Assembly (NCBI GenBank): GCA_965248265.1
Contig: CBDFJF010000002.1
Location: 2,656,001-2,720,000, forward strand
DNA: 64,000 nt
From: Candidatus Latescibacterota bacterium
GTDB lineage: Bacteria > Latescibacterota > UBA2968 > UBA8231
Reading direction: 5' to 3'
The position numbers and the translations under genes were made by a program. The notes beneath the pieces are model-generated. The model worked only from the letters and a program-made list of their open reading frames with translations. It was not told where the DNA came from and made no database searches. Numbering within the stretch: position 1 is the first letter of the stretch; every line of letters starts with the position of its first letter. This document shows positions 3,090-53,639 of this stretch, piece by piece.

Positions 3090-3190
3090 CCCTCGCCATA
3101 CCCGGTAAGCCCCACTATACCCATCCCGCCCTTCACAAAAGCCTCAAGTTTTCATTCGACACCAAGCCTCAAGCGATCTTGACTATTTAT
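3090..3190 (+). mobile_element. IS91/ISCR-family oriIS-proximal remnant, interrupted by IS1111-type copy A
   Basis: Near-identical to 4333-4430 and 52968-53050 (ttttcattcgacaccaag..gcgatcttgacta), which follow an IS91 transposase 3' end or lead to a ...cctatac tip. Confidence 0.7.
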
Positions 3191-3214
3191 CTCTTTAGGC
3201 GGAAAAGTGCAAGG

Positions 3215-3400
3215 TTTCTTTTCTGCAATTCGGAGGATTTCTTCAACTTGCAATAATCTCATTTCGGTCTTCAGTAGAGACCTTCATACTGTTCCGGCCA
3301 GAAGCCGAGCCAGAGGGACAGAGTGTAACGTGGGTGATCTTCCCGAAGGAGTCACGAATAAATAGCGGTCATCTCTGGCCCAGTTCCTCGTTGTTCGTCT
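3215..3400 (-). ncRNA. Predicted bridge/seek RNA of IS1111-type copy A
   Basis: Downstream non-coding region with two hairpin-closed loops. 3358-3365 is the exact reverse complement of the element's flank 3183-3190. Boundaries approximate. Confidence 0.7.
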
Positions 3401-3402
3401 TC

Positions 3403-4192
3403 TCAGGCGGCCGCCCGTTCGTATGATGCGGCACAGGTGAAGTGGCGTTCGGCGTTAAATGCTTGTCCGGAGCGGTACCAACCGTGAAGTTTTCGCAGGA
3501 AGTGCCTCATGACGGCGGTCATGGCTTTCTGTCCGGGCATGGAAAGGCGTTTGCTTCGGTAGTAGTCGCCGTACAGACCCGTTCTACGCACCAGGGGAAA
3601 GATGACCTGGCTGGGAATCTTACGCAGGAGAGCCCTTCCCTTCTTGGAGATTCTGTATTGCTCTCGATACTGACCGGATTGACGCATCTGAATATTGAGA
3701 CCGGCGTAGCGCATGAGCATACGCCAGCTGGTGAAATCGCTGAGTGGTCCGGTTTCACCGATGAGGCGAGCCAAATTCTTGGCTGATGACGCCCGAGGTC
3801 GGAGCGGGTAGGCTCGGATCTTTCTGACGCAGACGCCGCAAGAGCGAAATCAAGCGCTTTTCCAAGATCGCCTTGCGTTGCTCGTAGAGCAGGAACTCCT
3901 CCCACAGCTGGCTGAGGTCGACCTCGAGGAGATCGATGTATTCGGGTGTGAGTTGATGACGGGCGGTGGAGGTTGCGTCCTCCCAGAGCCGGTCCAGCGA
4001 GCACTGCCGGATACGCGGCGCCCGCCGCCGCATGGCCCGCTCGAAGCGGGTACGGCCCGCACGGACGATGCGATAGGGATTGCATCGATACTTATCGATC
4101 AAGGCGCGACCCGAGGTGCTGTAGAGAAAGCTCTTGGTGAAGGAGAAGTCGCAAAACAGCTCCATCAGCACGCGATGCAGTCGGCCACGCAC
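3403..4192 (-). pseudogene. IS110-family recombinase pseudogene (C-terminal half, frameshift near 3780)
   Basis: YAGL..RQSGQ motif; 2-bp deletion relative to the intact copy; DEDD RuvC half is missing. Confidence 0.9.
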
Positions 4193-4257: not shown

Positions 4258-4430
4258 CCCAGCAATCCGAGTTCGAATACACGGCCTGATCGCAGCACCG
4301 CTTGATCCCACAGGATCGATGCGCCTGAATCGACCCTCGCCTGCCCGGCAAGCCCCAATATACGCATCCCGCCCCTCATAAAAGCCTCAAGTTTTCATTC
4401 GACACCAAGCCGCAAGCGATCTTGACTATC
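4258..4430 (+). mobile_element. IS91-family remnant (transposase last codons QQSEFEYTA* plus ori-proximal region)
   Basis: Matches the QQSEFEYAA* end at 52788 and the ori-proximal block at 3090-3190. Confidence 0.7.
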
Positions 4431-5278
4431 TATATGGCCGCTGATCAGGGTCACGCGCGCGGCCGCAAAGCGACCTCTGGTGGCTGGCATGAGGTCCCAC
4501 TCAATTCGTTAGATTGCGCGTAGCACGTGGGGGTAGCGCGTGCACGAGAGCCGATAATCAAAGACTGTCATGCGTACCCGCGCAAAGCCCTTCATCGTCC
4601 TCGTCGAACGCTTCTACCCCCGATCCGTTCGTCTTCGCCTCGTCCTGACGTTCGTCGCCGGGCTGATGGCGCTGGGGCTGACTGACCGGCGGAAGTCCTC
4701 GTTGCATGGGGTGAGGGACTCAAGGGGCTCCTTACCTTCATGACACAGATCGCATTGACTCTCGTCACTGCGCACGCACTGGCTCACACCGACACGATTC
4801 GTGCTGCACTTGCCTGCACTCAAGGCAGCGTGTCTAGTGCCCCAGCTTCTCGATCTCCCGCTGAATGAGGGTGGAGCCGGTAGCCAACGCCGAGTACGCC
4901 GCCGCTGCGCCTCAGCACGAATAAGCCGGACAGGCGGTTGCCCGGCCTCGGCGACGGAACGACCTTCTCTCCGACGCCCATCGACCGAGCAACCGCCGTC
5001 CACAGTGCACTCACGAGTAATCGTGAGAGACCCGCGCGGGTTCGGTCGTCTCAGACCACGGAGACGAGGATGCCGGATCGGAACCCACAGCCAACCGGTC
5101 GCTTCTGCGCTGGTGTTGGCCTCCGTCCGCCGAACAAGGCTGTGAGGGACTTAGCCACAAGCCATGGCGCCACGACCGGGCGTCTGCGAAGGGCACGATC
5201 CACCATCAACAGCCCCCATGTTTTTCGAAGTGAGCCGCTTCTCCTCGACGTCGCACGCCACACGGGTCCTGTCATCAG

Positions 5279-31857: not shown

Positions 31858-33353
31858 ATGCCAGCAACTCCCCCCGCCTACCGTCGCCGCACGCCCGAGA
31901 CGGAACCCCTCTACCAGGTGCTGGCCGAGAACGTGGAGACCTTCATCGAGCGCACGCGCTCGTCGGACCGGCAACTACCGGTTCATGTCGAGGAGGAGCT
32001 GCGCGCATACCTTGAATGCGGAATTCTCGCTCACGGGCTCCTGCGAGTACGGTGCGAGGACTGCGGCAAGGATCGCGTCGTCGCGTTCTCGTGCCAGCGA
32101 CGTTCCTTCTGCCCGAGTTGTATGGGACGGCGGATGGCCGACACCGCCGCCCGGCTCACCGATGAAGTCCTGCCGCGGGTGCCGGTACGGCAATGGGTGC
32201 TGAGCCTGCCGTACGAGATCCGCTATCGCCTGGCCTGGGACAAAGAGCTGGTCGGGGCGGTGCTGGCCGTCTTCCTGCGTGTCGTCTACGGCTGGTATCG
32301 CCGTCAGGCTCGGGCGCAGGGATATGAAGACAGTCGCTGCGGCTCGGTCACTTTCGTGCAGCGATTCGGTTCTGCTCTAAACCTCAATCCTCATAACCAT
32401 GTCCTCATGATCGACGGTGTCTACGTCGACGGCGAGGACGGTCCGGAATTCGTGCCGGCGCCACCGCTGAGCGACGACGACGTGCAACAGATCGTCGAGA
32501 CCACAGCCCAACGGGTGGTGCGCCTGCTGCAACGGCGCGGCCTGCTGGAAGAGGGTAATACCGATGTGCTCATGGAGCAGGAGCCGCTGCTGGCCACGAT
32601 CACGGCGGCTTCGATCCAGGGCCAGGTGGCCACCGGCGACCGCGCTGGCCAACCCGTGCGCCGACGCTTGCTCGATCCGCAAGAGGGCATCCGCACGGCC
32701 CCGTTGTGCTTCGCCTCCCGCGGCTTCTCCCTGCATGCGGCCACCCGCGTGCCGGCCGCCGACCGCACCCGCCTGGAAAGACTGTGCCGCTACGTCAATA
32801 GACCTCCGCTGGCAGCGGGACGCCTGCAGATCCTGGATACCGAAAGAGTGGCCTTCGACTTGAAAACGGTCTGGTCGGACGGCACCTATCGAATTGAGCT
32901 CTCGCCGCAAGAATTGATAGAGAAACTGGCGGCCCTGGTACCGCCAAGGCGCCTCAACCTGGTGCGCTATCACGGCGTCCTGGCGCCCAACGCCGGCGGC
33001 CGGGCACGGATCGTACCGGGCCCGAAGGAAGAGGCCCCCGAAGCGGACCCCTGTACGCATACTTCGGCGCCCACCCCCGCCCAACGACGGCACCGCCTGG
33101 CCTGGGCTGACCTCCTCCGGAGAGTTTTTCGAATAGACGTTACCGTGTGCCCCGCTTGCGGCGGCCACATGAAGGGAGTTTGCCGCAGGCAAACTCTAAG
33201 AGACCGGTCATCAGACCGGTCTCCATCGTGGCTGCTCTCACCGATCCACGTTCTATCCAATGCTATCTGGAGGGCGTCGGTCTACCGTCGCGCGCGCCGC
33301 CCATTGCTCCACCACGGCCTCATCCCCAACACGAGTTCGACTTTGCCGCCTGA
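31858..33353 (+). pseudogene. IS91/ISCR-family rolling-circle (HUH, Y2) transposase, frameshifted near the 3' end by a 50-bp insert
   Basis: Zn-binding CEDC/FSC..RSFCPSC, QRFGSALNLNPHNH (HUH), LCRYVNRPP; natural C-terminus ...EFDFAA* is in the shifted frame. Confidence 0.92.
33175..33224. repeat. 50-bp double-hairpin insertion
   Basis: Absent from the paralogous copy at 39911-39920. Hairpins gagtttgcc-gca-ggcaaactc and gagaccggtc-atca-gaccggtctc. Confidence 0.85.
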
Positions 33354-33554
33354 GACCGACCGGCCGGACACCGCTGCGTTCCCATCTCTCGCTGACAGCT
33401 GCCGCGGCGCCCGCAGGCGCTGATCCGGGCACCTATCCACTGTCCCATCGTTCACCGCACCACGATCAACGCACAAGCACGACCCTCAACGCCCTCGAAA
33501 AGCCCAAAAACCGCTTGACTGACTACCGATCTCTTTAGGCGAAAGAAGTCAAGG

Positions 33555-33740
33555 CTTCTGTCTATTCGGAGGATTTCTTCAACTGGCAATAATCTCATTT
33601 CGGTCTTCAATGGAGACCTTCATACTGTTCCGGCCATGTTGAAGAAGCTGGGCCAGAGTGACGGGTTGTAACGCGGGTGATCTCCCAAGGGAGTCACGAA
33701 TCGGGAGCGGTCATCTCTGGCCAGTTCCTCGTTGTTCGTC
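33555..33740 (-). ncRNA. Predicted bridge/seek RNA of IS1111-type copy B
   Basis: Target loop 33669-33707 and donor loop 33592-33626 with guide matches to the flanks and element ends; boundaries approximate. Confidence 0.75.
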
Positions 33741-33743
33741 CTC

Positions 33744-35018
33744 TCAAGCTGCCTGCCGCTCGTAGGATGCAGCACAAGTGAAATGACGTTCGGTGTTGAA
33801 TGCTTGTCCGGAGCGGTACCACCCGTGGAGCTTTCGCAGAAAGTGTCTCATGACGGCAGTCATGGCTTTCTGTCCGGGCATGGCAAGGCGCTTACGGCGG
33901 TAGTAGTCGCCGTACAGACCCCTTCGTCGCACCAGGGGAAAGATGATCTGGCCAAGAATCTTACGCAGGAGAGGCCTTCCCTTCTTGGAAATCCTGTATT
34001 GCCCTCGATACTGGCCGGACTGGCGCATCTGGATATTGAGTCCGGCGTAGCGCAGGAGCATGCGCCAGCTGGTGAAGTCGCTGAGCGGTCCGGTTTCACC
34101 GATGAGGCGAGCCAGATTCTTGGCGCTGATGACGCCGGCAGTCGGAGCAGGTAGGCTCGGATCCTTGTGACGTAAACGCCGTAAGAGTGATGTCAGCCGC
34201 TTTTCCAGAGTAGCCTTGCGTTGCTCGTAGAGCAGGAACTCCTCCCACAACTGGCTGAGCTCAAGCTCGAGGAGATCGACGTAGGCGGGCGTGAGCTGAT
34301 GACGGGCGGAGGACGTGGCATCGTCCCAGAGCCGCTCTAGTGAACGCTGCCAGATACGCGGCGCCCGCCGCCGCATGGCCCGCTCGAAGCGGGTACGGCC
34401 CGCACGGACGATGCGATAAGGATTGCATCGATACTTATCGATCAAGGCGCGACCCGAGTTGCCGTACAGGAACTCCTTGGAGAAAGAAAAGTCGCAAAAC
34501 AGCTCCATCAGCACACGGTGCAGTCGGCCGCGCACCGCCATAAGGGCTCGATCGGCCCGCTCGTAGAGGAAGCCACATTTGCGCAGCAGCTCATACTCCT
34601 CAGGGAGATCCCGGTGCCGCAGGACCTTATTGAGCCGCGCCAGCGTATTGATGATGTGCGGGTCCTTGAGATCTGTCTTGCCGTCGTCATTGCTCTCGAC
34701 GACACGAAATTTGGCAACCGCCTCGCCGTTGACGTACGCCGTCAGGTGACCCAGTCGTCGCGCTGTGCGCAACAGCTTGTCCTGGTAGCCGCCTGAAGGC
34801 TCGCAGATGACTCGCAGTGATTTGAAGCCGTGCTCTCTCGCCAAGCGCCGACAGGCACGCAGCTTCTTCTCGATCTGTCGGGTCGTATTGGGCCACTCGT
34901 CATCCATGGCCTGATCGCCTAACTCAAAGTAGACATTGAGCTTGCTCTTGCTGACATCGACACAGATATCGAGGACCTGATCGAGTTGGACGGCCGGAGT
35001 CAACTTGGTAGATTTCAT
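33744..35018 (-). CDS. IS110-family DEDD/Ser recombinase
   Basis: VDVSK, CEPSG, KTDLKD, YAGL..RQSG. Confidence 0.95.
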   Translation of the reverse strand: MKSTKLTPAVQLDQVLDICVDVSKSKLNVYFELGDQAMDDEWPNTTRQIEKKLRACRRLAREHGFKSLRVICEPSGGYQDKLLRTARRLGHLTAYVNGEAVAKFRVVESNDDGKTDLKDPHIINTLARLNKVLRHRDLPEEYELLRKCGFLYERADRALMAVRGRLHRVLMELFCDFSFSKEFLYGNSGRALIDKYRCNPYRIVRAGRTRFERAMRRRAPRIWQRSLERLWDDATSSARHQLTPAYVDLLELELSQLWEEFLLYEQRKATLEKRLTSLLRRLRHKDPSLPAPTAGVISAKNLARLIGETGPLSDFTSWRMLLRYAGLNIQMRQSGQYRGQYRISKKGRPLLRKILGQIIFPLVRRRGLYGDYYRRKRLAMPGQKAMTAVMRHFLRKLHGWYRSGQAFNTERHFTCAASYERQAA

Positions 35019-35337
35019 GACGGGCTTCTCCTTTCAGATGCAGACGTGGGCACACGTCTTTGAGGGTCTTCGGACACCTCCGAATATCCGAAAGAGAAGC
35101 CCTCTTTGTTCGCCTAAGAGTATGTAATGCCGTTTATCCTCACTATGCGCTGCCCTCTGATCGAAGGGTACACGGGATGCTCATGGTCTCTACGAGAGAT
35201 TCGGGTTCGAGGTACTTGATGATTCCGCGGCTTGGATGCAGCTGAAGTTCGAGAGGCCATGGTTCCGACCCGAGATGGGCACAGAGTGAATCGAGGGCAC
35301 ACAGGTGGGCAGGACGTATAGGACCGATGAAGTACCA

Positions 35338-35576
35338 ACGTATAGGACCGATAAAGCACCATTATGATTAGTTTAGCTGGCGGCGGGATGGTGTCGAGAG
35401 GGAATGTGAACGGTGGATTGGGTGCCGGGTGCGATGGGCGAATGGATTGGGGGTGGATCAGGGCCTGCCAACGGGTCGATGAGGCCTGTCGGTCCGTTGA
35501 AAAACGCCGCCGGGGGGGAGGGGGGGTGGGGGGTGACAGGGTCGGATCATACCGTTTGGGTAAGCTGGGCAAAATA
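35338..35576 (-). repeat. 239-bp IS91 oriIS-type end, direct repeat copy 1
   Basis: Identical by eye to 36496-36734; ends ...tttatcggtcctatac. Confidence 0.85.
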
Positions 35577-36495: not shown

Positions 36496-36734
36496 ACGTA
36501 TAGGACCGATAAAGCACCATTATGATTAGTTTAGCTGGCGGCGGGATGGTGTCGAGAGGGAATGTGAACGGTGGATTGGGTGCCGGGTGCGATGGGCGAA
36601 TGGATTGGGGGTGGATCAGGGCCTGCCAACGGGTCGATGAGGCCTGTCGGTCCGTTGAAAAACGCCGCCGGGGGGGAGGGGGGGTGGGGGGTGACAGGGT
36701 CGGATCATACCGTTTGGGTAAGCTGGGCAAAATA
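36496..36734 (-). repeat. 239-bp IS91 oriIS-type end, direct repeat copy 2
   Basis: Identical by eye to 35338-35576. Confidence 0.85.
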
Positions 36735-39610: not shown

Positions 39611-39762
39611 TCCGGTCCAAATCGACTCCGCTTGCCCATGCCACCCAACTCGTGTTGCCCTCCGCGGGCTCCGCGCTCTCCGCGCTCTCCGCGATAAGAT
39701 TGTCGCGAAACAGACAATCCTGCAAGTTTGTCACACAGAGTGGGAACCGGCTCAGGGGCAAA

Positions 39763-39940
39763 CGAAGGAAGAGGCCCCCGAAGCGGACCCCTGTACGCAT
39801 ACTTCGGCGGCCACCCCCGCCCAACGACGGCACCGCCTGGCCTGGGCTGACCTCCTCCGGAGAGTTTTTCGAATAGACGTTACCGTGTGCCCCGCTTGCG
39901 GCGGCCACATGAAGATCGTGGCTGCTCTCACCGATCCACG
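39763..39940 (+). mobile_element. IS91 transposase internal fragment (copy of 33023-33250 without the 50-bp insert)
   Basis: Near-identical sequence. Confidence 0.9.
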
Positions 39941-40848
39941 GTATCGCCATAGGGAATGTAAGAACCCGGCTTGCCGATCGTGGACAGAAACATCAGGGAA
40001 AAGTCGCTGCACCCTATAAGTTCGGGCGGCGTGATCTCCTTGAGGGTTTTTCCCTCGTCGCGTGCCAGCAATGTCAGAGCGATCAGGGCTCGGTAGAGAG
40101 TTGCGGAGACGTAGCCGGGCCCTTCTCGGCCACCGTGATCTTCGGTAGCGTTGAAAACCAGATCTATAGATTCCAGCAGATCCTTTTTGGCCTGGTCGAT
40201 CCATGCCTGCGACCGAGGCCATAGCGACTTCATCGCCAGCAGCCCAGCGATCCGCCCCTGTGAAAAACCCGGTGCCTGATTACAGTGGAAAATGTACTCG
40301 TATTGCACAAAATCCTTGTTGATCAGGGACATACCTTTTTTGGAAACGGCTTCGAGGATGATCCTTCGGCCGGCCTCGGTCAGCAGGACCCCGGCCCAGT
40401 CCAATCCCAGGGCGCAGGAAAAGGCATAGCCGAAGCCTGTAAAGGAGCGATTATCGAAACAACTGCCCGGAAAATGCTCCTGGAAGCACTCGTCCCAGTA
40501 TTGGCTGTGGGCCATGGCCAATATGGCCCGGGCACTCATACGCAGCATCTCCACGTCGCCATCTACGATCCCGGCAAAGCCGCAAACCAAGGCGACATAT
40601 TCCGGGTCCGATTCCCCGCGTTGAATGTCATAGGCTCGGTGGTGCCGGTTGATGGTGGAGCTGGATTCCATCACGAACTGTTCCGGCTTCGCCGTGCTGA
40701 TCAGGTCTTGGGCCTTGACGCGCATCCCGTCCATCAATGGCTTGAACGCCCGGTGAGCCACTTTCTTCCGGAGGGCCTTCAGTTCACGCGTGTCAAACAG
40801 CAGGCCCAGCGTGGGATTCATTTCCACCGGCTCATCCGCCGGTTTGAT
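39941..40848 (-). pseudogene. Internal fragment of a heparinase II/III-like protein
   Basis: DHGGREGPGY and YIPYGD motifs; frame open between two IS91 pieces with no native start or stop. Confidence 0.55.
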
Positions 40849-41389
40849 GGATAGTGTGGATGAACAGGATTATCGGGAGTCAGTCAAGCGGCTTTTGAGG
40901 CTTTTCGAGGGCGTTGAGGGCGGTGCTTGTGGGTTGATGGTCGTCCGGCGAACGATGGGCCGGCGAATAGGGTGCGCGGATCAGCCTCTGCGGGCGCAAC
41001 GGCAGCGGTCAGCGAGAGATGGGGACGCAGCGGTGTCTGGCCGGTCGGTCTCAGGCGGCAAAGTCGAACTCGTCTTGGGGATGAGGCCGTGCCGGCGCGA
41101 TGGGCGGCGCGCGCGACGGCAGGCCGACGCCCTCCAGGTAGCATTGGATAGAACGTGGATCGGTGAGAGCAGCCACTATGTTCATGGGGCCACCGCAGGC
41201 GGGGCACACGCTAACGTCCACGCGAAAAACCCGTGCTAACAAGGCGGCCCAGGCCAGGCGGTGCCGGCGTTGGGCGGGGCTGGACTCCTTCGTATGCGCA
41301 CAAGGGTCCGCTTCGCGGGCCTCTTCTTTGCGGCCCGGTACAATCTGTGCCCGATCGGCGGCATTGGGGGCCAAGACGCCATGATACCG
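40849..41389 (-). mobile_element. IS91 remnant: transposase C-terminus plus intact oriIS
   Basis: RYHGVLAPNA...CPACGG...EFDFAA*; tip ttgactgactcccgataatcctgttcatccacactatcc. Confidence 0.88.
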
Positions 41390-42514
41390 ATGACCATATA
41401 TCACGAAGAGGGCATGTACGCCCTGAGCCCGAACGTGGTGCGCACGCCCTCCGGCGATCTGCTGGTGTTCTTCCAGCGGTCCCCGCATCTGGGCCATCCC
41501 CACCACGGCCATCCGCTGTCCAATGTGCAGGCCTGCCGCTCGCAGGACGAGGGGCAGACGTGGAGCAGACCGACGCTGATCACGGCGGATCCGCTGGGGG
41601 GGATCATGGACCGCGGCGTCTACACCCTCTCCGACGGCAGTATCTTCATGCATTGCTCGGGTACGGAGCTGGTGCCGGCCGAGGGGTCCGAGGCCCACGG
41701 ATCCGGGTGGGTCTCGCGCCCCGGCAAACCCTTCTGGGTGCGCTCCCGGGACGACGGCCACACCTGGAGTGAACCGGTGCGCTTCCCGCCCGTTCCGGAC
41801 GCCAACTACGGTCCCCTTGCCGAGCATTCGGGAGTCAGCCGCAGCGGCCTGATCGAGCTTCCCGACGGACGCCTGCTCATGCCCAGCAAGGCGACCGATC
41901 GCCCCGAGAGTGAACACAAATACTTCGGCATGCTGCGGGTGTCCAGCGACATGGGCGAGACGTGGGAGTACGGAGGACGGATCGCCGAAGACCCCGTCGT
42001 CCACTTCAGCGAGCCGGCCATCCACCGCACCCCCAGCGGCCGCATCCTGGTGATCTTTCGCTGTCACGCCAACATGGCGCGGGACGGGGACGAGTCTCTG
42101 CCGCTGCGTGACCGCCAGTACAACAGCCGTTTCCAGGCCCTGGTCACCTCCGACGACGACGGCGACACGTGGACGCCGTGGAAGCGCTCGGTGCACGGCT
42201 ACCCGGCCCACATGCTGGGGCTGCGGGACGGGCGCATCTTCCTCACCGTCGGCACCCGCTGGGACGGCCAGGCCGGCTGTCTCGCCCGCGTCCTGGATCC
42301 GGAAGGCACGGAGCTGGAGACCACGCCAATCCAGACCATGGCTCCCGACCTGGAAAACGGCCCCGACGTGATCGTGCAGAGCGATTCGTCCACCCAGGAC
42401 TGCGGCTACCCCTGGTCGGTGGAGCTGAACGACGGCCGCGTCCTGGTCGCCTACTGGCACCACTACCCGGACAATCACCGCGGCATCGAGGGCGCCATAC
42501 TGGCCGAGAAATGA
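41390..42514 (+). CDS. Sialidase-like BNR protein, 5' end clipped by the IS91 remnant
   Basis: SxDxGxTW repeats, DCGYP. Confidence 0.8.
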   Translation: MTIYHEEGMYALSPNVVRTPSGDLLVFFQRSPHLGHPHHGHPLSNVQACRSQDEGQTWSRPTLITADPLGGIMDRGVYTLSDGSIFMHCSGTELVPAEGSEAHGSGWVSRPGKPFWVRSRDDGHTWSEPVRFPPVPDANYGPLAEHSGVSRSGLIELPDGRLLMPSKATDRPESEHKYFGMLRVSSDMGETWEYGGRIAEDPVVHFSEPAIHRTPSGRILVIFRCHANMARDGDESLPLRDRQYNSRFQALVTSDDDGDTWTPWKRSVHGYPAHMLGLRDGRIFLTVGTRWDGQAGCLARVLDPEGTELETTPIQTMAPDLENGPDVIVQSDSSTQDCGYPWSVELNDGRVLVAYWHHYPDNHRGIEGAILAEK

Positions 42515-42542
42515 GCCCATTCAACCGGAAGGATTCATTCCT

Positions 42543-43970
42543 ATGAAAGTCCTCAGCACCCGGCGCATAACGAATGACCGCCACCACAATGCGTTCACCG
42601 GAGCGTGCTGGTTCAAGGGTGATTTGTACGTCGCCTATCGCCAGGGTGACTTTCACCATGAGCACGATTCCGGTCGCACCATCGTCCAGCGCAGCCGCGA
42701 CGGGGGGGTAACCTGGGATACGGTAACAGTGCTGCGCGGCCACTTCGACACCCGCGACGCCCACCTCTACACCGACGGAGATCGGTTGTTCTGCACCTGC
42801 TACGTGGATCCCGTCGACGACCTCCCGGTGGTATCGGGCTGTGGTGTTACCGAGGACGGCGATCGCTGGACGCCCTTCGAGCCCTATTCCGGGACCGACA
42901 ATTTCGCGCTGTGGCGTCCCGTCTGGCATCGGGGGAAACACTACTGTGCCGGAGGCTGTTACGACACACCAGATCGCGGCGTTCACTGGTTCGAGAGTGA
43001 AGATGGACACAGCTGGGTGTATGTGCGCCACATCAACGACTCGCCGGAGGATAAGGCAAACGAGTGTTACCTGGAGATATTACCCAGCGGTGCGGCGACG
43101 ATGCTCATGCGGTGCGAGACTGGCCTGAAGAAACCCAAGTTGTGCTTCAGCCAGTACCCGTTCGAGAGCTGGGAAATGCAGCAACTGGACGTCCGCATAA
43201 CCGGGCCCGCCGTCTGGACCGTCGACGACAAGGTCTACATCTCCGGGCGCTGGGACCCGATCGACGAACGCATCCACGCGGAGGAAGACCACGCCGCCCA
43301 CACCGCCATCTTCCGGGTCATCGACGGTGAATGTTTCCTGATCTGCGTGCTCCCCTCCGGACCACACCCGGACAACTCCTACATGGGCGTCGCCCGCCGC
43401 CAGGACAACAGCCATCGGTTCTCGCTCAGCTATTACAGCAACGCCCTCGCCAATGAGGATCCGCTGATAGACCAGTGGCAGAAGCCGGATATCTACGTGG
43501 TCGACGTGCTCTTCGGCGCCGATTTCATCGATGAGATGCTGGTCAGCGATCTGGTGGACGCCCGGCGCGGTCTCGAGGAGGCGACGGAGCCCGATCCCGG
43601 GTCTGATGGGTTGAGATATCGTCCCGTGCGCATACCCGAGGACGGTACGCCTCACACACCCGGTCACAACTTCCTCGACGCCCGCGACGTCATCGGCGGC
43701 CGCGGCGGACTCGTTTACTTCGTCAAGGATATCGAGGTGGGACCGTGGGATCTGGTCGACGTTCACCTCGGCTACGACGGACCGGTGAAGGTGTGGTGGA
43801 ACGGGCAGGAGGTTTTCACTGGCCCCGGAACCGGTCCGGCGGTGCCGGACGCGACCTCACTGCGCCTCGAATCCAGGCACGGTACAAACCGGCTGGCATT
43901 GGCCCTCGATACCAAAGGCGGCCGGGCGCGGGGGATCTACGCGCGCTGGGAGCGCACATGGGAGTCGTAG
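42543..43970 (+). CDS. Sialidase-like BNR protein with C-terminal beta-sandwich domain
   Basis: HNAFT, SRDGGVTW, RD, DNSY; DGPVKVWWNG. Confidence 0.75.
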   Translation: MKVLSTRRITNDRHHNAFTGACWFKGDLYVAYRQGDFHHEHDSGRTIVQRSRDGGVTWDTVTVLRGHFDTRDAHLYTDGDRLFCTCYVDPVDDLPVVSGCGVTEDGDRWTPFEPYSGTDNFALWRPVWHRGKHYCAGGCYDTPDRGVHWFESEDGHSWVYVRHINDSPEDKANECYLEILPSGAATMLMRCETGLKKPKLCFSQYPFESWEMQQLDVRITGPAVWTVDDKVYISGRWDPIDERIHAEEDHAAHTAIFRVIDGECFLICVLPSGPHPDNSYMGVARRQDNSHRFSLSYYSNALANEDPLIDQWQKPDIYVVDVLFGADFIDEMLVSDLVDARRGLEEATEPDPGSDGLRYRPVRIPEDGTPHTPGHNFLDARDVIGGRGGLVYFVKDIEVGPWDLVDVHLGYDGPVKVWWNGQEVFTGPGTGPAVPDATSLRLESRHGTNRLALALDTKGGRARGIYARWERTWES

Positions 43971-43974
43971 TTGT

Positions 43975-44479
43975 ATCCACCGTAAGCCCACAGAGAGAGC
44001 GGGTGACTGGAGCCTCCCGGCGGGTGGTCTATCGCCTGGACCTGCAGGCCAGGACCGCGCCTGGCCTGCTACCGCTAACCGTTTCCGCTGCCTACCGGGA
44101 TGCGGAAGGCAACGAACGCAGCACGGCTTCCTGCCAGGTCTCTCTTTCGATAGACCAGCACTCGAAGACACCGCTGGACGTCAAATATGGCACCATCGTC
44201 GCGGAAGCTTGGCTGGCGATGGTCGCGCGTCGAGCGATGGGGCTGAACCACATGGAAGATTATCGCGAAGCGGGGTCCTGGCTGCGGCAGCAGAGCACGG
44301 ACTTTAATCGCTACTGGCCGCACCTACCCGACAGCGGGGCGTTGGTCAACCAGATGCGGGCGCTGTGCCGCTCATCGGTGCAGCCGATGCAGGAAAGCTC
44401 GCGCAAGGAGATTACGCTTTCGCGGTATCAGCACCTGAAGGGCGTGTCGGATCAGAGGGTGGCTGCGTCGGAAGCGTAG
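43975..44479 (+). pseudogene. C-terminal fragment of a probable VWA-associated protein
   Basis: Coding-like frame ...GASRRVVYRLDL...SRKEI...* without a start. Confidence 0.35.
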
Positions 44480-44499
44480 GATTCGTATCTGGTTTCGGA

Positions 44500-44930
44500 G
44501 TAGACCAGCAAAGATGAGCTGACGGTCAGCACCTGGCAGACGTGCTCGACCGCCTGACGTCGACGCGTCGGCCGCAGAAGTTTCCCCGGGCGGTTTCTTT
44601 CAGGATCGAGAGGTCCAGAGCCTGGTCGGCAACCAGCCTCTTCAACCGTTGGTTTTCCAGATCGAGCTCTTTCAGGCGCCGGGCTTGATCCACTTCCATG
44701 CCGCCGTATTCCTTACGCCAGCGATAATAGGTCTGTTCGCTGACACCGAGATGACGGGCCGCCTCGATGATCGTCTTGCCCTCAGAAATCAGAAATCAGA
44801 ATCTCCGCCCGTCGGAGAGGGCCGAAAATCTGTTCAGCGGTGTACCGTTTCCCGGCCATAGGGCTCCCCTTTCTACGTCCCATATCCTAACTGTAAGACT
44901 GGGAACATTATAGGGGGGCAGGTCAGTGAC
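44500..44930 (-). mobile_element. IS3-family remnant (left end, OrfA, start of OrfB)
   Basis: MAGKRYTAEQI; YYRWRKEYGGM..DQARRLKELDLENQRLKRLVADQALD..GNF; RRRQAVEH. Confidence 0.85.
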
Positions 44931-44934
44931 GAGG

Positions 44935-45203
44935 TGACTGTAGTCAAACACAGGCTGCGGCTCGGGGCGGGCCGGCACGATCGGCGGCGCCCGCCGGCTC
45001 AGGCCCATCCCCCACGACCGCCTATGAGGTCGCGACGGGCCCTCACCTCCGTGGGCGTGGCCGGCACAGTCCGCTGCCTCTGCCGCCGGCCCCGGTACGA
45101 TCCGAGACCGGTCAGCCGCATGCGGTGCCAGCACGCCGTGGTACCGCACCAGGTGCGGAGTAAGCCGCGCGGCGCCAACGCCGCCAGCTTCTCGATCAGC
45201 TCT
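44935..45203 (-). mobile_element. IS91 transposase C-terminal remnant
   Basis: ELIEKLAA, LVRYHGVLAPHA, RAPPIVPARP. Confidence 0.8.
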
Positions 45204-45204
45204 T

Positions 45205-45350
45205 AGAAGGTGATGCTGATGAATTGTATGACCTTCAAAATGACCCGCACGAAATCCACAATCTCGCCAGCGATCCAGAATACAAAGACATTGTCTACGA
45301 ACATCATCTGCTCAACTGGCTCGTTGAAACAGAAGACGCGATAACCCGTT
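45205..45350 (+). pseudogene. Sulfatase C-terminal fragment
   Basis: ELYDLQNDPHEIHNLA motif. Confidence 0.65.
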
Positions 45351-45363
45351 AACAGGATTTGCC

Positions 45364-46227
45364 ATGACCGACCTCAACCAACTCCGACACCAAATGGACA
45401 CTGAAGGCTGGTTTATTGCTCGTCAGGTTCTTTCGCCTGAAAATATCGCAACGGTAAAAGATCGCTTGCGTTACATCATTCAGCACCGAGACTTTTTCGA
45501 AAAATATGGAATCCTCTGCCAAGAAAATGAGGCATACAAAAAAGACGATGCCAATAGAACAGACGACTCCCTTCTGCAATTTAACAACGTCGTGAGTGCC
45601 CATATGCGCGACGAGGTTGTTTTAAAGAACACGCTTCATACAGAAAACATGATGGCAATCGTCGCATCTCAAATTGGCCCCGACTACTGCACCAATGGGG
45701 CTTCATTTTTCCTCAAGCCACCGCACTATGGAACAGAAGTCGCATGGCATCAAGATAGTCGCACCTGGGTAAAACAGCCACGCCCCTGGCCTCCTGAAGA
45801 AACGCCGAGATTGTTTGATACCTGGATCGCTTTTGATCACGCTACGAAAGAAAATGGATGTCTGCAATTGTTACCCGGCTCCGAAGAACACGGCATATTA
45901 CCCAACCGAAAACGAGGAGACACGGACTTCGGACATGGTTTTGGAGACGATCCTGCCAGCATGGGACTTTCCGAATCCAATACTGTTCATTGCGTCATGG
46001 AACCCGGCGATGTCGCCGTCTGGCATCAGGATATGTCGCATTATTCTGAACCCAATCGCTCCGACAAACCGCGCCTGGGTCTTTCTCTCTCCCTTGTCGC
46101 AGCCGCAGACATCCCGAGGGTGCGTCCTCACCTTGTTCAAAACCGTTATGTATTTCACGGATACCCAATTTGCATAGGCGGAAAACCAGCTACAATAGGA
46201 AATGCTGCACCTGAATTTGCCAATTAA
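45364..46227 (+). CDS. PhyH-family dioxygenase
   Basis: WHQD, ENGCLQLLPGS, HYSEPNRSDKPR. Confidence 0.9.
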   Translation: MTDLNQLRHQMDTEGWFIARQVLSPENIATVKDRLRYIIQHRDFFEKYGILCQENEAYKKDDANRTDDSLLQFNNVVSAHMRDEVVLKNTLHTENMMAIVASQIGPDYCTNGASFFLKPPHYGTEVAWHQDSRTWVKQPRPWPPEETPRLFDTWIAFDHATKENGCLQLLPGSEEHGILPNRKRGDTDFGHGFGDDPASMGLSESNTVHCVMEPGDVAVWHQDMSHYSEPNRSDKPRLGLSLSLVAAADIPRVRPHLVQNRYVFHGYPICIGGKPATIGNAAPEFAN

Positions 46228-46245
46228 GATTTGGAGGAAGTTTGC

Positions 46246-46476
46246 ATGACACCTGAAGTCGCTTTATGAAAAACGCCACGACATGATCCGGGACGGCTAT
46301 TGCGTTATCGAAGATAGCGTGAGTGAAGATTTTCTCATCGAAATGTGCAAGAAATCGAGCGCTTAATCGCTAACCATGAAGAACCACCCGATCTCGTGTA
46401 ACAGGGCCAGCACATCAATGTGGAACGCGAAGACAACGCCGTCATCGACAAACTCCTCTCCTGGGAGCCATCTTGC
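46246..46476 (+). pseudogene. Degraded 5' part of a second PhyH-like gene
   Basis: MIRDGYCVIED motif, internal stops, truncated at an ori tip. Confidence 0.55.
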
Positions 46477-46808
46477 GTATAATTAGAAAGAGAGAGGGTT
46501 ATCGCTACTTCGGTCCAGCGCGTTGGGCGGGGAAGGAGGAACTCAGGCCGCGGCGCCGAGGTCGTGTGGGCTGGTCAGGGATAGAGATGTGAGAACGGGG
46601 GAACGGGAACGGTTAACTTCAGGCGATGTTGGCCGGCCCTGGTGCACCGGTGCCGAGGTGGATCAGGTGACGCAGGAGAAAACGGCCTGCGGAGCGGGGC
46701 GGGGCCGCGCGATGGGGGGCGCTCGCCCGCTCAGGCCCATCCCGGCAAAGCAGCGGCGGATCGACCCGGCCGCGATCACCCGCATGCGGCCATCGCAGTC
46801 GGGACAGA
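46477..46808 (-). mobile_element. IS91 remnant (degenerate transposase end plus oriIS)
   Basis: CPDCDGRMRVIAA..GRAPPIA; tip gataaccctctctctttctaattatac. Confidence 0.65.
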
Positions 46809-47091
46809 TTGCTCAGAGCACGTGCTTGCCCGCCCTGGCAGCAGGGATCCCGCAAGGGGCGTGCTCTCCGCTGTCCGTGCACACAGAGACGGCGTCGATA
46901 TCGTCCCTGGAAAATAGGCCGTCGTAATCATCGGTCGGGTCTCCGCCAAACGCGTCGATAATGCCTCTCGCGCGATCGAGATCCCTCGAGCTGACGGCAA
47001 CGAGCTCCGCATCCTCCGTGTCCGAAATGACGTGGGCGTGGAGCTGACTGATCATGCCGGCACCGGCGATGGCGAAACGGACGCTGCTCAC
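46809..47091 (-). pseudogene. Gfo/Idh/MocA oxidoreductase 5' fragment
   Basis: IAGAGMI, DIDAVSVCT, AGKHVL; truncated by the IS91 remnant. Confidence 0.8.
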
Positions 47092-47109
47092 AGTGCAGTT
47101 CCTCGCTGG

Positions 47110-47913
47110 TTAGAGTCGATCGATGTAGACATAGTATGCGCCGACGTCGTTTCCATGCGCATCGACGAACCACGTTTGCAGCCGCGTCTCCCCGGCATTG
47201 AGCTTCACCGTGAACGAGATTCCGAAGTCGTCCGCGTTAACGTCGGCTTCTTTCTCGATGTCGGCCACACGGAGACGCGCCTTCCTGATCGGCAGCGCCT
47301 TCCCGCCGCCGTATCCGTCCTTGATCTCGACGTAGGAGCGGAGGTCTCCCTCTATGCCCTCCACGATCGGGCGATCTTCCTCCTTCGGCCATCGCCTGAG
47401 CTCGACACGATATCGGCTGGAGACAGCGACGTCGATTTCCCAGTAGCCGTTGCACGCCATTCCCGCCCGAACCTGCGACTGGTTCCAGGCACAGACCGCA
47501 TCCGGATTGCGCCAGTCGTGAGCGTTCAGCTGGACCGCAGGCACTTCGGTCGATCCAACGGGAATCGGGATCGTACCGCTGAACTGGCGGGACACCTTTG
47601 CCCACCACGCCTCGTAATCCTTCCGCAGGCGGGTGACGACATCCGGATAGTCCGCCGCGACATCCGTGGTCTGTCCAGGGTCCGTCCGGACGTCGAAGAG
47701 TTCTTTCCCGTTGATCAGGCGCCAGCGCTGCGTCATCGTCGCGCTCTTGCGCCACTTGATCGGGTCTGTGATCCGCTGCGAGTCGGTCACGAGCGTGCGA
47801 TCGGGCCAATCGACATCCTCTCCCCGAATTAGCGGGGCCACGCTCGTGCCGTCGAAGTCGTCGTCGTCGTGTTCGATCCCGCACAGATCCATCAGCGTCG
47901 GCATCATATCGAC
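47110..47913 (-). pseudogene. Arylsulfatase 3' half
   Basis: DMMPTLMDLCG, DGTS, ELFDVRTDPGQ; begins at an IS91 ori tip. Confidence 0.8.
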
Positions 47914-47969
47914 GCTTAGACAAGCGGTAACATGTCAACACCGATCGTGGGCAAATATCGAGTCTCCGT

Positions 47970-49160
47970 TCAGTTGAGGATAGGTGTGTAGGGACGATTG
48001 TTCTTGAGGACGCTGAAGACGACGTGGAGCATCTTGTTGGCGACATGAGTGAGCGCGACGAGATGGTGCTTGCCGCGATCAATGTGTCGCTGATAGACCT
48101 GGGTGAAGAGGGGGTCATGGCTCTTGAAGACGGCGATCTCTGAGGCTTGCATGACGGCGGTGCGCAGGTAGCGACTGCCGCGCTTGGACATTCTGCCGCG
48201 ACCGACCAGATCGCCGCTGTCGAACTGCTTGACGTCGAGGCCAGCGGTGGCGACGAATTTGCGAGCACCATGCTGATCCTCGGGATGAAACACGGGCAGG
48301 ATCTCGGCCAGGATGGTGGGTGCCCACACGGGCCCCAGACCTGGGACGGAGCGCAGAAGGCACTGCTGCTCGGTCACGAGATCTTGCAGTTGTTCGTCGA
48401 GTTGAGCGATCTGTTCGATGAGGAGGTTGACGCGCTCCATGACGAAGCGAATCTCCAGGGACAAGTGCTGACTGCGATGAGTGAGGGCGAAGGAGTTTTT
48501 AGCGGAGGCCTTCAAGGCTTGTGCCTGGTCTCGTCCGAAGGCTCCCCGACTGGCGTCCTTCAACAGACGCGTCAGGCGGCGGATGTCGACGCGGGCCAGG
48601 TCCTCAGCGGTGGGAAACTGTGCCAGCACGGCTCGACTGGAGGCACCGAAGAGATCGGAGAAGTGCTGCCCGTATTCGGGAAAAGCCAAGTCGAGGAGGC
48701 TGACGAGATGACCCTTTTGGGACTTGACGGTCTGTGCGCACTGATAGCGCAATCGCGTCAGATCGCGCAAGGACTGGACCTGTCGATCCGGGATAGCGCA
48801 GACCTTCAGATCGGTCTCCCGCAGCAGATGGGCGATCAGCAGGGCATCGGCGCTGTCGGTCTTGGTGCCACGGATGGTGATGTTGCGCCGCGCTGCCACG
48901 ACCAGGGGATTGATGAGGTCAACGACATACCCTGCCTGGACCAGGGCTTCGTAGAGGACCATCCAGTAGTGGCCGGTGGCCTCCATGCCGACGCGGATGT
49001 CGGCGGCGGGTTGTCCGGTCTCGGCCAGGCGTTGACACAACTGCTCGATGCCCTGGCGAGTCTGCTCCACGGCGAGATTACGGAAAACAGCCTGAGATTC
49101 CTCATCCAACAGCGTGGCGCGATGACTGCGTTTGGCCACATCAATTCCAAGTGTCCACAT
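47970..49160 (-). CDS. IS110-family DEDD/Ser recombinase
   Basis: GIDVAK, MEATGHY, KTDSADA, AGL....DSG, SKRG. Confidence 0.95.
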   Translation of the reverse strand: MWTLGIDVAKRSHRATLLDEESQAVFRNLAVEQTRQGIEQLCQRLAETGQPAADIRVGMEATGHYWMVLYEALVQAGYVVDLINPLVVAARRNITIRGTKTDSADALLIAHLLRETDLKVCAIPDRQVQSLRDLTRLRYQCAQTVKSQKGHLVSLLDLAFPEYGQHFSDLFGASSRAVLAQFPTAEDLARVDIRRLTRLLKDASRGAFGRDQAQALKASAKNSFALTHRSQHLSLEIRFVMERVNLLIEQIAQLDEQLQDLVTEQQCLLRSVPGLGPVWAPTILAEILPVFHPEDQHGARKFVATAGLDVKQFDSGDLVGRGRMSKRGSRYLRTAVMQASEIAVFKSHDPLFTQVYQRHIDRGKHHLVALTHVANKMLHVVFSVLKNNRPYTPILN

Positions 49161-49174
49161 TCGGCGAGCTCCTT

Positions 49175-49437
49175 GATCAAGTGACCGAAGCTGCCCACGA
49201 TCGGGGTGACGCCAGCTGGCACATCCTCGTAGCCAGATCAGGGAACGAAGGTCCCGTCAAGCGGTAAGTGCATGTGCTGGCGCAATGGCGGTCTAAGCCA
49301 GAGGACTGAGCCTCGAGTGGAGGATAGCCAACCCAGCAGCTTCGCTGATCCAGGATCGCATTGCTGGCATCAGGAAGCAAGCACTGAGAGTACGCAGCTG
49401 GTCGCCGTCTCGCGGGGCAGACACACCGAAGTGGCCT
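49175..49437 (-). ncRNA. Predicted bridge RNA of IS110 copy C
   Basis: Upstream non-coding region just after TATAAT; all four guide segments identifiable; boundaries approximate. Confidence 0.8.
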
Positions 49438-49443
49438 GCACCT

Positions 49444-49449
49444 ATTATA
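49444..49449 (-). promoter_or_regulatory. -10 box (TATAAT) of circle-junction promoter; -35 TTGACA at 47938-47933
   Basis: Circularising at the CT core gives TTGACA-17 bp-TATAAT. Confidence 0.85.
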
Positions 49450-49451
49450 CG

Positions 49452-49755
49452 AGTGGTTATAAAGTAGGTTATCGTTAGTCGATCAGGTGTTATTTTCGCT
49501 TTTTTTCGCGTTGATGGCGGTCTATGTGGGTTGACGGTCGTCGACTGAGCGCTTGAGGCTGCGAATAGGCCCGAAGGGGAGTGGCTGTGAACGAAGATGG
49601 GATTGCCAGCGAGGGATCAGGACACATCGGTGCCTTTGCTGTGACGACGAATCGATCTCAGGCGGCGAAATCTAGCTCGGACTGGGGATTGGGGCGTGCC
49701 GGGGCGATCGGCGGGGCCCGTGATGGCAGGCCGACCCCCTTCAGGTAGACGCGAG
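49452..49755 (-). mobile_element. IS91 remnant (transposase C-terminus plus oriIS, tip cut by IS110 copy C)
   Basis: YLKGVGLPSRAPPIAPARPNPQSELDFAA*; 49452-49676 repeated at 51351-51575. Confidence 0.85.
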
Positions 49756-49790
49756 CATCCCTCCGTACCCGCTTGCTATCAAACGATGGG

Positions 49791-51287: not shown

Positions 51288-51344
51288 TCTTCCGATCTCC
51301 TTTGTTTGTTCTTTGCAATCCAACGGATAGCACGATAAGGGACC

Positions 51345-51575
51345 ACGCTTAGTGGTTATAAAGTAGGTTATCGTTAGTCGATCAGGTGTTATTTTCGCTT
51401 TTTTTCGCGTTGATGGCGGTCTATGTGGGTTGACGGTCGTCGACTGAGCGCTTGAGGCTGCGAATAGGCCCGAAGGGGAGTGGCTGTGAACGAAGATGGG
51501 ATTGCCAGCGAGGGATCAGGACACATCGGTGCCTTTGCTGTGACGACGAATCGATCTCAGGCGGCGAAATCTAGC
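51345..51575 (-). repeat. IS91 oriIS end, direct repeat of 49452-49676, uninterrupted
   Basis: 225 bp identical by eye; tip ...tttataaccactaagc. Confidence 0.88.
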
Positions 51576-51779
51576 GTCTCCGAATCAGCAGGGCACGTGG
51601 GCGACGACTTCTGGTCTATCGAGTACAAGGTGGAGTTCGGTCACCTGTCAAAGATTCCCACGCCTGAAAAAGGTGACCGCTGGGGAGTTTCCGCTCAGCG
51701 CGTGTATCGACAGGCGGAGTGGAGTGTGTGGACTGTCGCGGACGAGAATATGAACTATGGATGGTTCCTGTTTCAGTGA
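51576..51779 (+). pseudogene. C-terminal fragment of a CBM9-like sugar-binding protein
   Basis: WSIEYKVEF..L..P..GDRWG..R..YGWFLFQ*. Confidence 0.45.
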
Positions 51780-51873
51780 CAGAGTGACCACCCTGGCTCG
51801 CGAAATGCGAGGCCTGCCCGACGCCGCGGATCTGTTTGCCGTTCACGGCACTGCGCTGTAGCGCGAGTAGGTG

Positions 51874-52413
51874 TCAGGCTTCGAGGGCGGCGCCGCGCCC
51901 ATGGCGCACGACCTTCGTGGCCAGTGAAAGCGCTGCGGTCACGGGGGTAGGGAGCTTCTCACCCGTGCTTGGGCCGTACAGCAGCCTGCCGTTCAGCGTG
52001 TCCCCAGCCCCGATGGAGCTGGATTGCGAAACCGCCTCAGTCGGCACAGTGCCGGACTCATTGCTGGCCGCGGCATAGAGAGCACCTTGGGCACCGCGCT
52101 CGATCACGACGCAATCGGGTCCGGCCGCGAGGACAGCTCCTGCCAGTGCTTCGCCGCATTCGTCAGGCAACCACTGGGCGAGCTCCTCTTCGGTGGCAAC
52201 CAGGCCGTAGAGGTGCGTCAAAAGGGCCACCATGCGCTCCCGCGGAACTCTCCCCGCGAACCACGGGCTGGGATCGAAGACGATCCGCGTGCCCTCACCG
52301 TGGGCCGCGGCAAACAGCTCTTCGAGCTCGCCGAAATCCTCGACGAATAGGGAGTACGTGGGCTCCCTGAGCGCCAGCTCTCCGCGCAGAGTACCTTCAA
52401 ACCTCGCGAACAC
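51874..52413 (-). pseudogene. PfkB-family carbohydrate kinase C-terminal fragment
   Basis: VFDP, RGAQGA, IGAGD. Confidence 0.7.
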
Positions 52414-52578
52414 CGGGCGCCTTATTAATCCTCAAGCGGCTTGCGACCGCCTCTGGCTCATCCTGAGAGATCGCGGCTGCGGCAGTTCATGGGCATCGCG
52501 TCGCGCGACATAGGGTAACCCGTCTCGCAGATCAAGGGAACAGCCATGCAGCAGAACGACCAGCACCTCGAGCTTTGA

Positions 52579-52967: not shown

Positions 52968-53071
52968 GGCCAAAGTACCCATCCCGTCCATCACAAAAGC
53001 TCAGATTTTCATTCGACACCAAGACGCGGGCGATCTTGACTACCCATAACGGCCCCTTATTTATCCTATAC
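52968..53071 (+). mobile_element. IS91 oriIS end
   Basis: gcgatcttgactacccataacggccccttatttatcctatac; first 45 bp repeated at 53416-53460. Confidence 0.8.
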
Positions 53072-53395: not shown

Positions 53396-53639
53396 CCCTC
53401 GCCCAGCTCCCGCAAGGCCAAAGTACCCATCCCGTCCATCACAAAAGCTCAGATTTTCATCGGCACCACCCATGGCATTGCGGATCAAGCCGGTCCCAAG
53501 GCCGAATCGACGGTCCCATCGCACCCCACCCGACCCACGGCCGGCACCCAAGCGCCCTGGCGACAGCAAGCACCACCATCGAATCCAAAAAAAAACCCAC
53601 TTGACCGACTCCCGATAACACCGTTTATCCTCCCTATGC
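53396..53639 (+). mobile_element. Chimeric IS91 oriIS end
   Basis: Left part like 3090/52968; tip ttgaccgactcccgataacaccgtttatcctccctatgc like 40849. Confidence 0.75.

Follow-up and report, generated by a model that had tools for sequence, protein, structure and literature searches.

Predicted bridge RNA guides co-vary with insertion-site flanks in a divergent IS110-family element of Candidatus Latescibacterota

Introduction

In a genome of Candidatus Latescibacterota, two copies of an insertion sequence, A and B, carry a non-coding region with the scaffold gagtcacga-[8 nt]-cggtcatctc, in which the central 8 nt differ between the copies. Both lie in a stretch of 64,000 nucleotides (the window; G000:C2:2656001-2720000 of a 7.3-Mb genome). 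The 8-mer of each copy resembles the DNA next to that copy, which raises the question of whether the 8-mer belongs to an RNA that guides the element to its insertion site, and what kind of site it addresses. Guide-target covariation underlies both 2024 papers on such systems (PMC11187229, PMC11208160), and natural guide reprogramming has already been published for ISEc11 and ISXne4 (PMC11187229). Copies A and B are accordingly a new, divergent example of a known mechanism.

In the IS1111 elements described in PMC11187229, the non-coding region follows the gene, and its top-strand match precedes the bottom-strand match in the 5' to 3' direction. In IS621, as described in PMC11208160, the bottom strand is the partner of the left guide, and the top strand that of the right guide. 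Against this background, the element examined here is very probably an IS110 element of IS1111 layout in which a region of ~213 nt encodes a two-loop bridge RNA (seekRNA) that guides insertion into IS91-type ends.

Results

Anatomy of the element and its copies

Judged by protein domains and layout, copies A and B belong to an insertion sequence of the IS110 family that has the layout of the IS1111 group (Table 1). Copy B is the sole intact copy in the genome, which also contains the relics A and C and three left-end fragments. In copy B, 213 nt of non-coding DNA lie 3' of the transposase gene and 107 nt lie 5' of it, the long 3' region being a trait of the IS1111 group (PMC11187229, PMC11208160). 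A second trait of the group, subterminal inverted repeats of ~11-13 bp, is also present: the left end reads CTCTTAGGCGAA and the right end, as its reverse complement, CTCTTTAGGCGAA, with 12 identical positions and one indel, and the right-end repeat begins at 33531. Comparison of filled and empty sites gives a left terminal extension outside the repeats of 5 (or 4) nt and a right one of 0 (or 1) nt, the element boundary being ambiguous by one A. These values of ~5 and 0 nt do not match the asymmetric extensions reported for IS1111 elements, which as a rule measure 7 bp at the left end and 3 bp at the right (PMC11187229).

The transposase of copy B consists of an N-terminal DEDD domain (DEDD_Tnp_IS110, PF01548; 39.5 bits, cut-off 29, E 6.4e-10) and a C-terminal Transposase_20 domain (PF02371; 47.3 bits, cut-off 21.3, E 2.8e-12), the domain pair of the IS110 family, each above its cut-off. 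The NCBIfam model NF033542 (IS110 family RNA-guided transposase) aligns with residues 19-405 at 118 bits (E 4.9e-34), short of its curated cut-off of 140. Matches to solved structures in the PDB number two, the ISCro4 transposase (6e-6) and IS621 (8.5e-6), over the C-terminal domain only. On these profile scores, the protein is a divergent member of the IS110 family. The window contains another IS110-family transposase gene, unrelated to this one, at 47970-49160 (-); it encodes 396 aa and scores 235 bits with NF033542, above the cut-off.

Copy A is a broken relic. Its non-coding region matches the covariance model with 148 bits, and its transposase remnant is recovered in two pieces, with a frame change near 3782-3786 and a 2-nt gap in the alignment to copy B. 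The N-terminal part of the transposase, the left end and everything upstream are lost. Copy C, in the same genome outside the window, is a 3' relic. One left-end fragment outside the window (G000:C2:1904875-1904983) follows directly on the final 10 nt of a right end (…GCCTAAAGAG|ACATACTC…), an arrangement resembling what a circle junction or a tandem pair would leave behind.

Table 1 Positions of element copies, predicted guides and target sites (window coordinates, except for copy C)
Feature	Position	Strand	Basis or state
Copy B, complete element	33531-35125 (1,595 bp)	gene on minus strand	intact
Copy B right-end non-coding region, predicted bridge/seekRNA gene	33531..33743	-	fold, consensus structure, motif positions
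Copy B transposase gene, 424 aa	33744..35018	-	intact; Pfam, NCBIfam, PDB matches
Copy B left end, subterminal inverted repeat and CATACT (pairable with right-donor guide)	35019..35125	-	
Copy B predicted guide, right-target	33700-33707		
Copy B predicted guide, left-target	33667-33674		
Copy B predicted guide, right-donor	33621-33626		
Copy B predicted guide, left-donor	33592-33596		
IS91/ISCR-family transposase gene, host element of copy B	31858..33423	+	Pfam and NCBIfam
3' non-coding end of IS91-family element up to the insertion	33424..33530	+	uninterrupted at other IS91 copies
Distal ~25 nt of IS91-family end (aatgccgtttatcctcactatgc…), severed by copy B; left target	35126..35151	+	
Uninterrupted target site in IS91-end remnant (…gactCTCCCGAT|aatcctgtt…)	40872..40879	-	8/8 to copy B guide
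Uninterrupted target site (…gactCTCCCGAT|aacaccgtttatcc…)	53609..53616	+	8/8 to copy B guide
Copy A, broken relic	3191-4192	-	3' non-coding region and transposase residues 162-424 kept
Copy A right-end non-coding region, predicted bridge/seekRNA gene	3191..3402	-	alignment to copy B
Copy A transposase remnant, residues 162-424	3403..4192	-	tblastn, two pieces in different frames
Copy A predicted guide, right-target	3358-3365		
Copy A predicted guide, left-target	3324-3331		
Copy A predicted guide, right-donor	3285-3290		
Copy A predicted guide, left-donor	3256-3260		
Type-A repeat, IS91-end-like solo repeat, left part of copy A target	3101..3190	+	family D13/D11
Second type-A repeat, uninterrupted (…gactatctat|a…), just past copy A break	4344..4433	+	family D13
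Uninterrupted type-A repeat (…gactacccat|a…)	52995..53048	+	family D11
Copy C, third copy, 3' relic	G000:C2:2386987-2387195		same genome, outside the window

Guides and flanks in the genome's own copies

On the transposase strand, the scaffold shared by copies A and B reads GACCG-[8 nt]-TCGTGAC. The 8-mer of copy A is ATAAATAG on the window's forward strand, and its exact reverse complement, CTATTTAT, occupies positions 3183-3190, the right target of copy A and the last 8 nt of its type-A repeat, abutting the element end at 3191. Read on the transposase strand, the 8-mer is thus CTATTTAT and the bases past the right end (…CTAAAGAG) are ATAAATAG, an 8/8 match. In copy B, the forward-strand 8-mer ATCGGGAG faces the flank CTACCGAT at 33523-33530 with 7 of 8 positions matching; on the transposase strand, the 8-mer is CTCCCGAT and the bases past the right end (…CTAAAGAG) are ATCGGTAG. 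CTCCCGAT is also found at 40872 (-) and 53609 (+), in both cases inside an uninterrupted copy of copy B's target repeat. In copy C, the guide TTATCGAT and the flank ATCGATAA match at 8/8. Outside the 8-mer, loop and flank are without any similarity. The initial annotation had reported the common scaffold with its differing 8-mers, the exact match in copy A, the 7/8 match of copy B to its own flank with 8/8 to the two other sites, and the donor-loop strings CATACT and ATCTC unchanged between A and B; every one of these strings is present at its position, and the donor-loop strings are identical in both copies.

The two words differ in how telling they are. CTATTTAT occurs in the window only as flank and guide (2 occurrences, 0.17 expected; at least 2 in 0 of 100 shuffles) and 27 times on both strands of the 7.3-Mb genome. 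CTCCCGAT is not rare by itself (3 in the window, 3.84 expected), so the support from copy B rests on position and context, not on word count. Because copies A and C are dead relics, their guide-flank matches are fossils of past insertions.

Covariation of guides and flanks over 13 loci

Relatives were collected from two Candidatus Latescibacterota MAG records, from 13 metagenome contigs and by a phylum-wide DNA search, which gave matches in 4 of 168 genomes, the window's own included. A search of 76 family genomes with a covariance model (R1) returned only copies already found, in 3 genomes; neither this nor the phylum-wide search supplied additional covariation data. The test set comprises 13 loci with an 8-mer and a readable right junction, carrying 11 distinct guides; L008 (guide cut by a rearrangement), L004/L013 (guide region deleted) and L023 (right end missing) were left out.

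Covariation across further homologs, which the initial annotation had named as one way to check its proposal, is present. The right-target guide agrees with its own right flank at 82 of 104 positions, the cross-locus mean being 3.78/8, and none of 100,000 shuffles reaches 82. The match to the own flank is 8/8 at four loci, 7/8 at five, and 6/8, 5/8, 3/8 and 1/8 at one locus each. The exceptions are one element present at two sites (L021, 3/8; L024, 1/8), which fits neither right flank, and L027 (5/8). The target loop contains another variable segment on its 3' side (…TTACA, …TGCACA, …TCCACA, …TCAACA); this repeats the left-junction sequence and reads …TTACA in the window's genome. It agrees with its own left flank at 38 of 48 positions over 8 loci, a total reached by 48 of 40,320 permutations. 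Because the loci are related to each other, the figures for both guides overstate independence. Guides thus co-vary with both target flanks, as in bridge RNAs and seekRNAs, with the exceptions L021, L024 and L027, and the pattern supports the identification of the 8-mer as a right-target guide that co-varies with its flank.

Two explanations without an RNA guide bear on the same figures. The matches might be due to chance, or loop and flank might derive from one repeated sequence family, as the unremarkable count of CTCCCGAT and the composition of the flanks, which all start with A and in many cases have AT…AG in common, would allow. Within-clade permutations, however, keep these shared letters and reach the observed sums in only 12 of 720 and 4 of 5,040 cases in two clades, figures to which the same relatedness of loci applies; together with the empty tail of the 100,000 shuffles, the scarcity of CTATTTAT in 7.3 Mb and a loop-flank similarity confined to the 8-mer, this makes the explanation scarcely credible. 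The 8-mer might also be a feature of the DNA itself, either a copy of the flank written in at each insertion or a protein-binding repeat. The perfect flank matches at four loci are compatible with this, as is an RNA that is so far predicted from sequence, but L002 and L003 have the same guide beside two different flanks (6/8 and 8/8), and the guides of copy B and L015 each fit the other's flank (8/8) better than their own (7/8 each). The guide is therefore inherited and not rewritten at each insertion. The location of the 8-mer in an internal loop of a conserved fold, and the RNA mechanism established by experiment in relatives (PMC11187229, PMC11208160), likewise count against a DNA-level feature, which we consider very unlikely.

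Predicted fold and donor loop

The ~213-nt region is predicted to form two stem/internal-loop/hairpin modules, common to 13 sequences. The consensus fold contains 4 helices with 37 pairs, and 97.3% of its cells are paired, a level reached by 0 of 500 shuffles, whereas slid controls pair at 30-46%. Five pairs are compensatory, with both sides changed, a number reached in 3 of 500 shuffles, and the region of copy B folds with z = -4.18. In this predicted structure, as in bridge RNAs and seekRNAs, the guides are carried by internal loops: the first loop holds both target guides, and the second holds AGUAUG and GAGAU.

Both segments of the second loop, the donor-loop strings of the initial annotation, match the element's own ends, as donor guides do. 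AGUAUG is complementary to CATACT, which is common to all 14 left ends read, one of them differing two bases further on. GAGAU corresponds to the right end GAG plus the first one or two flank bases. The left-donor guide follows the right end, with GAGAU where the end is GAG and AAGAU in the two loci ending AAG. [quoted passage not shown] A two-base core AT, with targets of the form …TTAC-AT-…, was considered; it fits only the sites at G000:C2:2725828 and 2286941 and misfits most empty sites (…TT|AT…) and the type-A sites, and element ends of the form ACATAC…AAAGAG are preferred. An Rfam search of 33400-35300 with E up to 1 gave no bridge-RNA family, only a chance snoRNA-like match of 20 bits against a gathering score of 100.

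Strand and expression of the predicted RNA

An RNA is presumably made from the non-coding region, most likely from the transposase strand. This strand is favoured because the IS1111 seekRNAs that have been tested follow the gene and share its orientation (PMC11187229), and because it is the sole reading with the geometry of IS621, in which the left guide addresses the bottom strand and the right guide the top strand (PMC11208160). On the transposase strand, the 3' ends of both guides point at the crossover. The same guide logic could operate with an RNA transcribed antisense to the transposase, off the plus strand of the window; in that RNA, the donor loop would come first and the guides would have their 5' ends directed at the crossover. 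The opposite strand is indeed the more stable one in 13 of 13 sequences (mean -67.1 vs -59.2 kcal/mol), the promoter scan found no promoter-like site on either strand and, with 2 terminator-like sites against 1.3 expected, is uninformative, and the RNA-library contigs carry no strand information. The conserved helices, however, contain 10 G-U cells against 5 A-C cells and so speak for the transposase strand, as do the orientation in which IS1111 seekRNAs are supplied and the geometry of IS621, and a plus-strand RNA appears improbable.

Four sequencing runs were examined as contigs, which hold no strand or end information. Two RNA libraries, in which DNA may be present, yield contigs from relatives, 90-99% like parts of copy B, which do not prove transcription; one of these covers 33612-33744, and parts of the gene are covered as well. 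A G>T change at 33705 in three runs would give the guide of L015 (CTACCGAT), but it is not counted, since copies A and C have T there too. Contigs joining 33528/9 to 35122-35128 were considered as evidence of excision and rejected: their sides are shorter than 30 nt and they probably stem from other IS91 ends, and hence provide no excision evidence.

Target sites in IS91/ISCR ends and type-A repeats

Copy B is inserted 107 nt past the stop codon of a gene whose product combines an HUH Y2 transposase domain (Y2_Tnp, PF04986; 96.3 bits, 2.9e-27) with a zinc-binding N-terminal domain (Zn_Tnp_IS91, PF14319; 70.3 bits, 1.4e-19), as in IS91/ISCR elements. Its NCBIfam matches are both under the cut-off, ISCR clade Ia, the best, with 374 of 925 bits and IS91 with 105.6 of 125. 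The right target is CTACCGAT. Past the insertion point, pairs of IS91 copies remain identical over 25-26 nt before they diverge, which places copy B inside its host element, near the IS91 origin end. The oriIS-side end thus lies shortly 3' of the gene, as in other IS91/ISCR elements, its position being set by comparison and the origin itself being predicted; for IS91, oriIS has been placed 167 bp downstream of the coding sequence (PMC5737581). Uninterrupted ends read …cttgac(c/t)gact(c/a)ccgat|aa…ccgtttatcc…ctatgc. The metagenome contig L015 has the arrangement of copy B, with a 95%-identical transposase adjoining an IS91 C-terminus.

Copy A occupies a type-A repeat, with the site sequence …gatcttgact…tat|aacgggcccttatcgttc…. 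The repeat left of copy A and the one just past its break are 92% identical, and the type-A build resembles the end of the IS91 copy at G000:C2:1843697. IS91-type coding pieces were found within 7.7 kb of none of the 14 type-A repeats in the genome. On this comparison, the target of copy A is a solo repeat that is only IS91-end-like. The initial annotation had proposed that the guide was retuned to different IS91 ori variants; the part that stands is that guides track their flanks and that copy B lies in an IS91 oriIS-side end, while the extension to copy A reaches only as far as the resemblance of its repeat. The related genome G099 has the guide TTAGCGAT, which fits a repeat resident there; of the 4 occurrences of the guide-matching 10-mer TTAGCGATAA, 3 are empty sites of that repeat.

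At copy C (G000:C2:2386987-2387275), L016, L017, L018, L022 and L027, the right end of the element, not the left, abuts the …GCGTT… half of the repeat, so that the element is turned round with respect to the IS91-like end. The site of copy C contains the palindrome ATCGAT.

Surrounding repeats and remnants

The region 39700-53700 of the window is a graveyard of IS91-type sequence, with C-terminal coding remnants (D7) at 41067, 44947, 46679, 49674 and 52804 and several solo ends of both repeat types. Just past copy B, two direct repeats of 239 nt (35338-35576 and 36496-36734), 100% identical and 1,158 nt apart, contain the reverse complement of the IS91 end from G000:C2:1843697. Two further direct repeats, of 225 nt and 100% identical (49452-49676 and 51351-51575), flank a 510-aa frame on the minus strand (49791-51323), which has no Pfam match. 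A ten-copy degenerate repeat at 59860-62500, with an Asp/Gly-rich coding pattern (D1, D12) within long open frames, looks like a repeat-domain surface protein.

Discussion

The mechanism proposed for this element would begin with a bridge RNA encoded by the ~213-nt region 3' of the transposase gene and folded around two internal loops. The left-target guide, on the 3' side of its loop, has the top-strand sequence and would pair with the bottom strand on the left. In the second loop, AGUAUG would pair with CATACT of the left end, while GAGAU repeats the right end and its flank. The RNA-bound DEDD/serine recombinase would then join the circularised element to a site …TT|AT…, situated ~25 bp inside the oriIS-side end of IS91/ISCR elements or in solo repeats of like build. 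Point changes in the 8-mer would retarget the element to the end variants of each genome. Recombination itself would proceed as in IS621 and ISEc11.

Compared with ISEc11/ISXne4, ISKpn4 and ISPa11 as described in PMC11187229, the present element has the same DEDD transposase, subterminal inverted repeats and long downstream non-coding region, a top-strand match 5' of the bottom-strand match with an overlap at the insertion point, and close relatives with different guides for different targets. It differs from them in a protein that scores 118 bits against the cut-off of 140, in extensions of ~5/0 instead of 7/3 nt and in its target, an IS91/ISCR-type end; it is also known here from sequence alone. 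The guides here differ by 1-4 bases between end variants, short of a wholesale change of target. With IS621 (PMC11208160; structures 8wt6 and related), it has in common the two internal loops for target and donor, left guides with top-strand sense, right guides complementary to the top strand, and guide-target covariation in natural copies, the published basis of bridge RNA discovery. Unlike IS621, in which all four pairings described include a two-base core (CT), it has one unambiguous shared base, and the likeness in protein sequence is weak.

A fixed target inside the end of another transposable element has a precedent in one known relative of the family. The host of that relative is a DDE transposon with inverted repeats, whereas the present element sits in the oriIS-side end of rolling-circle elements (HUH Y2) and in their solo derivatives. 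Targeting of a multi-copy intergenic repeat, as by copy A and the G099 copies in solo repeats, recalls ISPpu9/ISPpu10, IS110-family elements inserted in repetitive extragenic palindromes, although the repeat family and the host are different. Among the titles and abstracts returned by full-text literature searches, no targeting of IS91/ISCR origin ends by IS1111/IS110 elements was found; the ISfinder-wide logos of PMC11187229 may include one.

Copies A and B leave the known mechanism unchanged. Within a single genome and its relatives, they offer a clean natural example of how an RNA-guided recombinase is retargeted on a fine scale: each guide allele stands beside its matching site, and the 6/8 and 7/8 cases show tolerated mismatches. 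The IS91/ISCR origin end would add rolling-circle transposons to the mobile elements targeted by IS1111 relatives, and a transposase below the NCBI naming threshold adds diversity to a family now used in genome engineering. We tentatively suggest, as a possibility that falls somewhat short of an even chance, that the lineage is a specialised parasite of rolling-circle transposons, its bridge RNA directed to one fixed point ~25 bp inside the oriIS end of IS91/ISCR-type elements and their solo end-derived repeats, and its guide alleles, 1-4 bases apart, tracking the end variants of each genome. If true, this would be transposon-on-transposon parasitism by RNA guidance. As the insertion is internal to the host element, whose last ~25 nt stay where they were, copying of IS91 could carry the passenger along, or the passenger could uncouple the origin.

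Several sites outside the window carry short pieces of the element. At G000:C2:2759535 (-) and 2263848 (-), in otherwise uninterrupted target repeats, one of each type, 4-8 nt of the site are replaced by CTCTTTAGG (window plus strand), the final 9 nt of the right end of the element; these remnants may be scars of imprecise element loss. The IS91 ends at G000:C2:2725828 (-) and 2286941 (+) have an extra GT exactly at the insertion point, which equals the first two bases of the element's left end and could be an excision scar, a polymorphism or a true form of the target; the former site is otherwise identical to the host end of copy B. Short scars of this kind, with 9 nt from the right end or 2 nt from the left, might be a record of imprecise loss.
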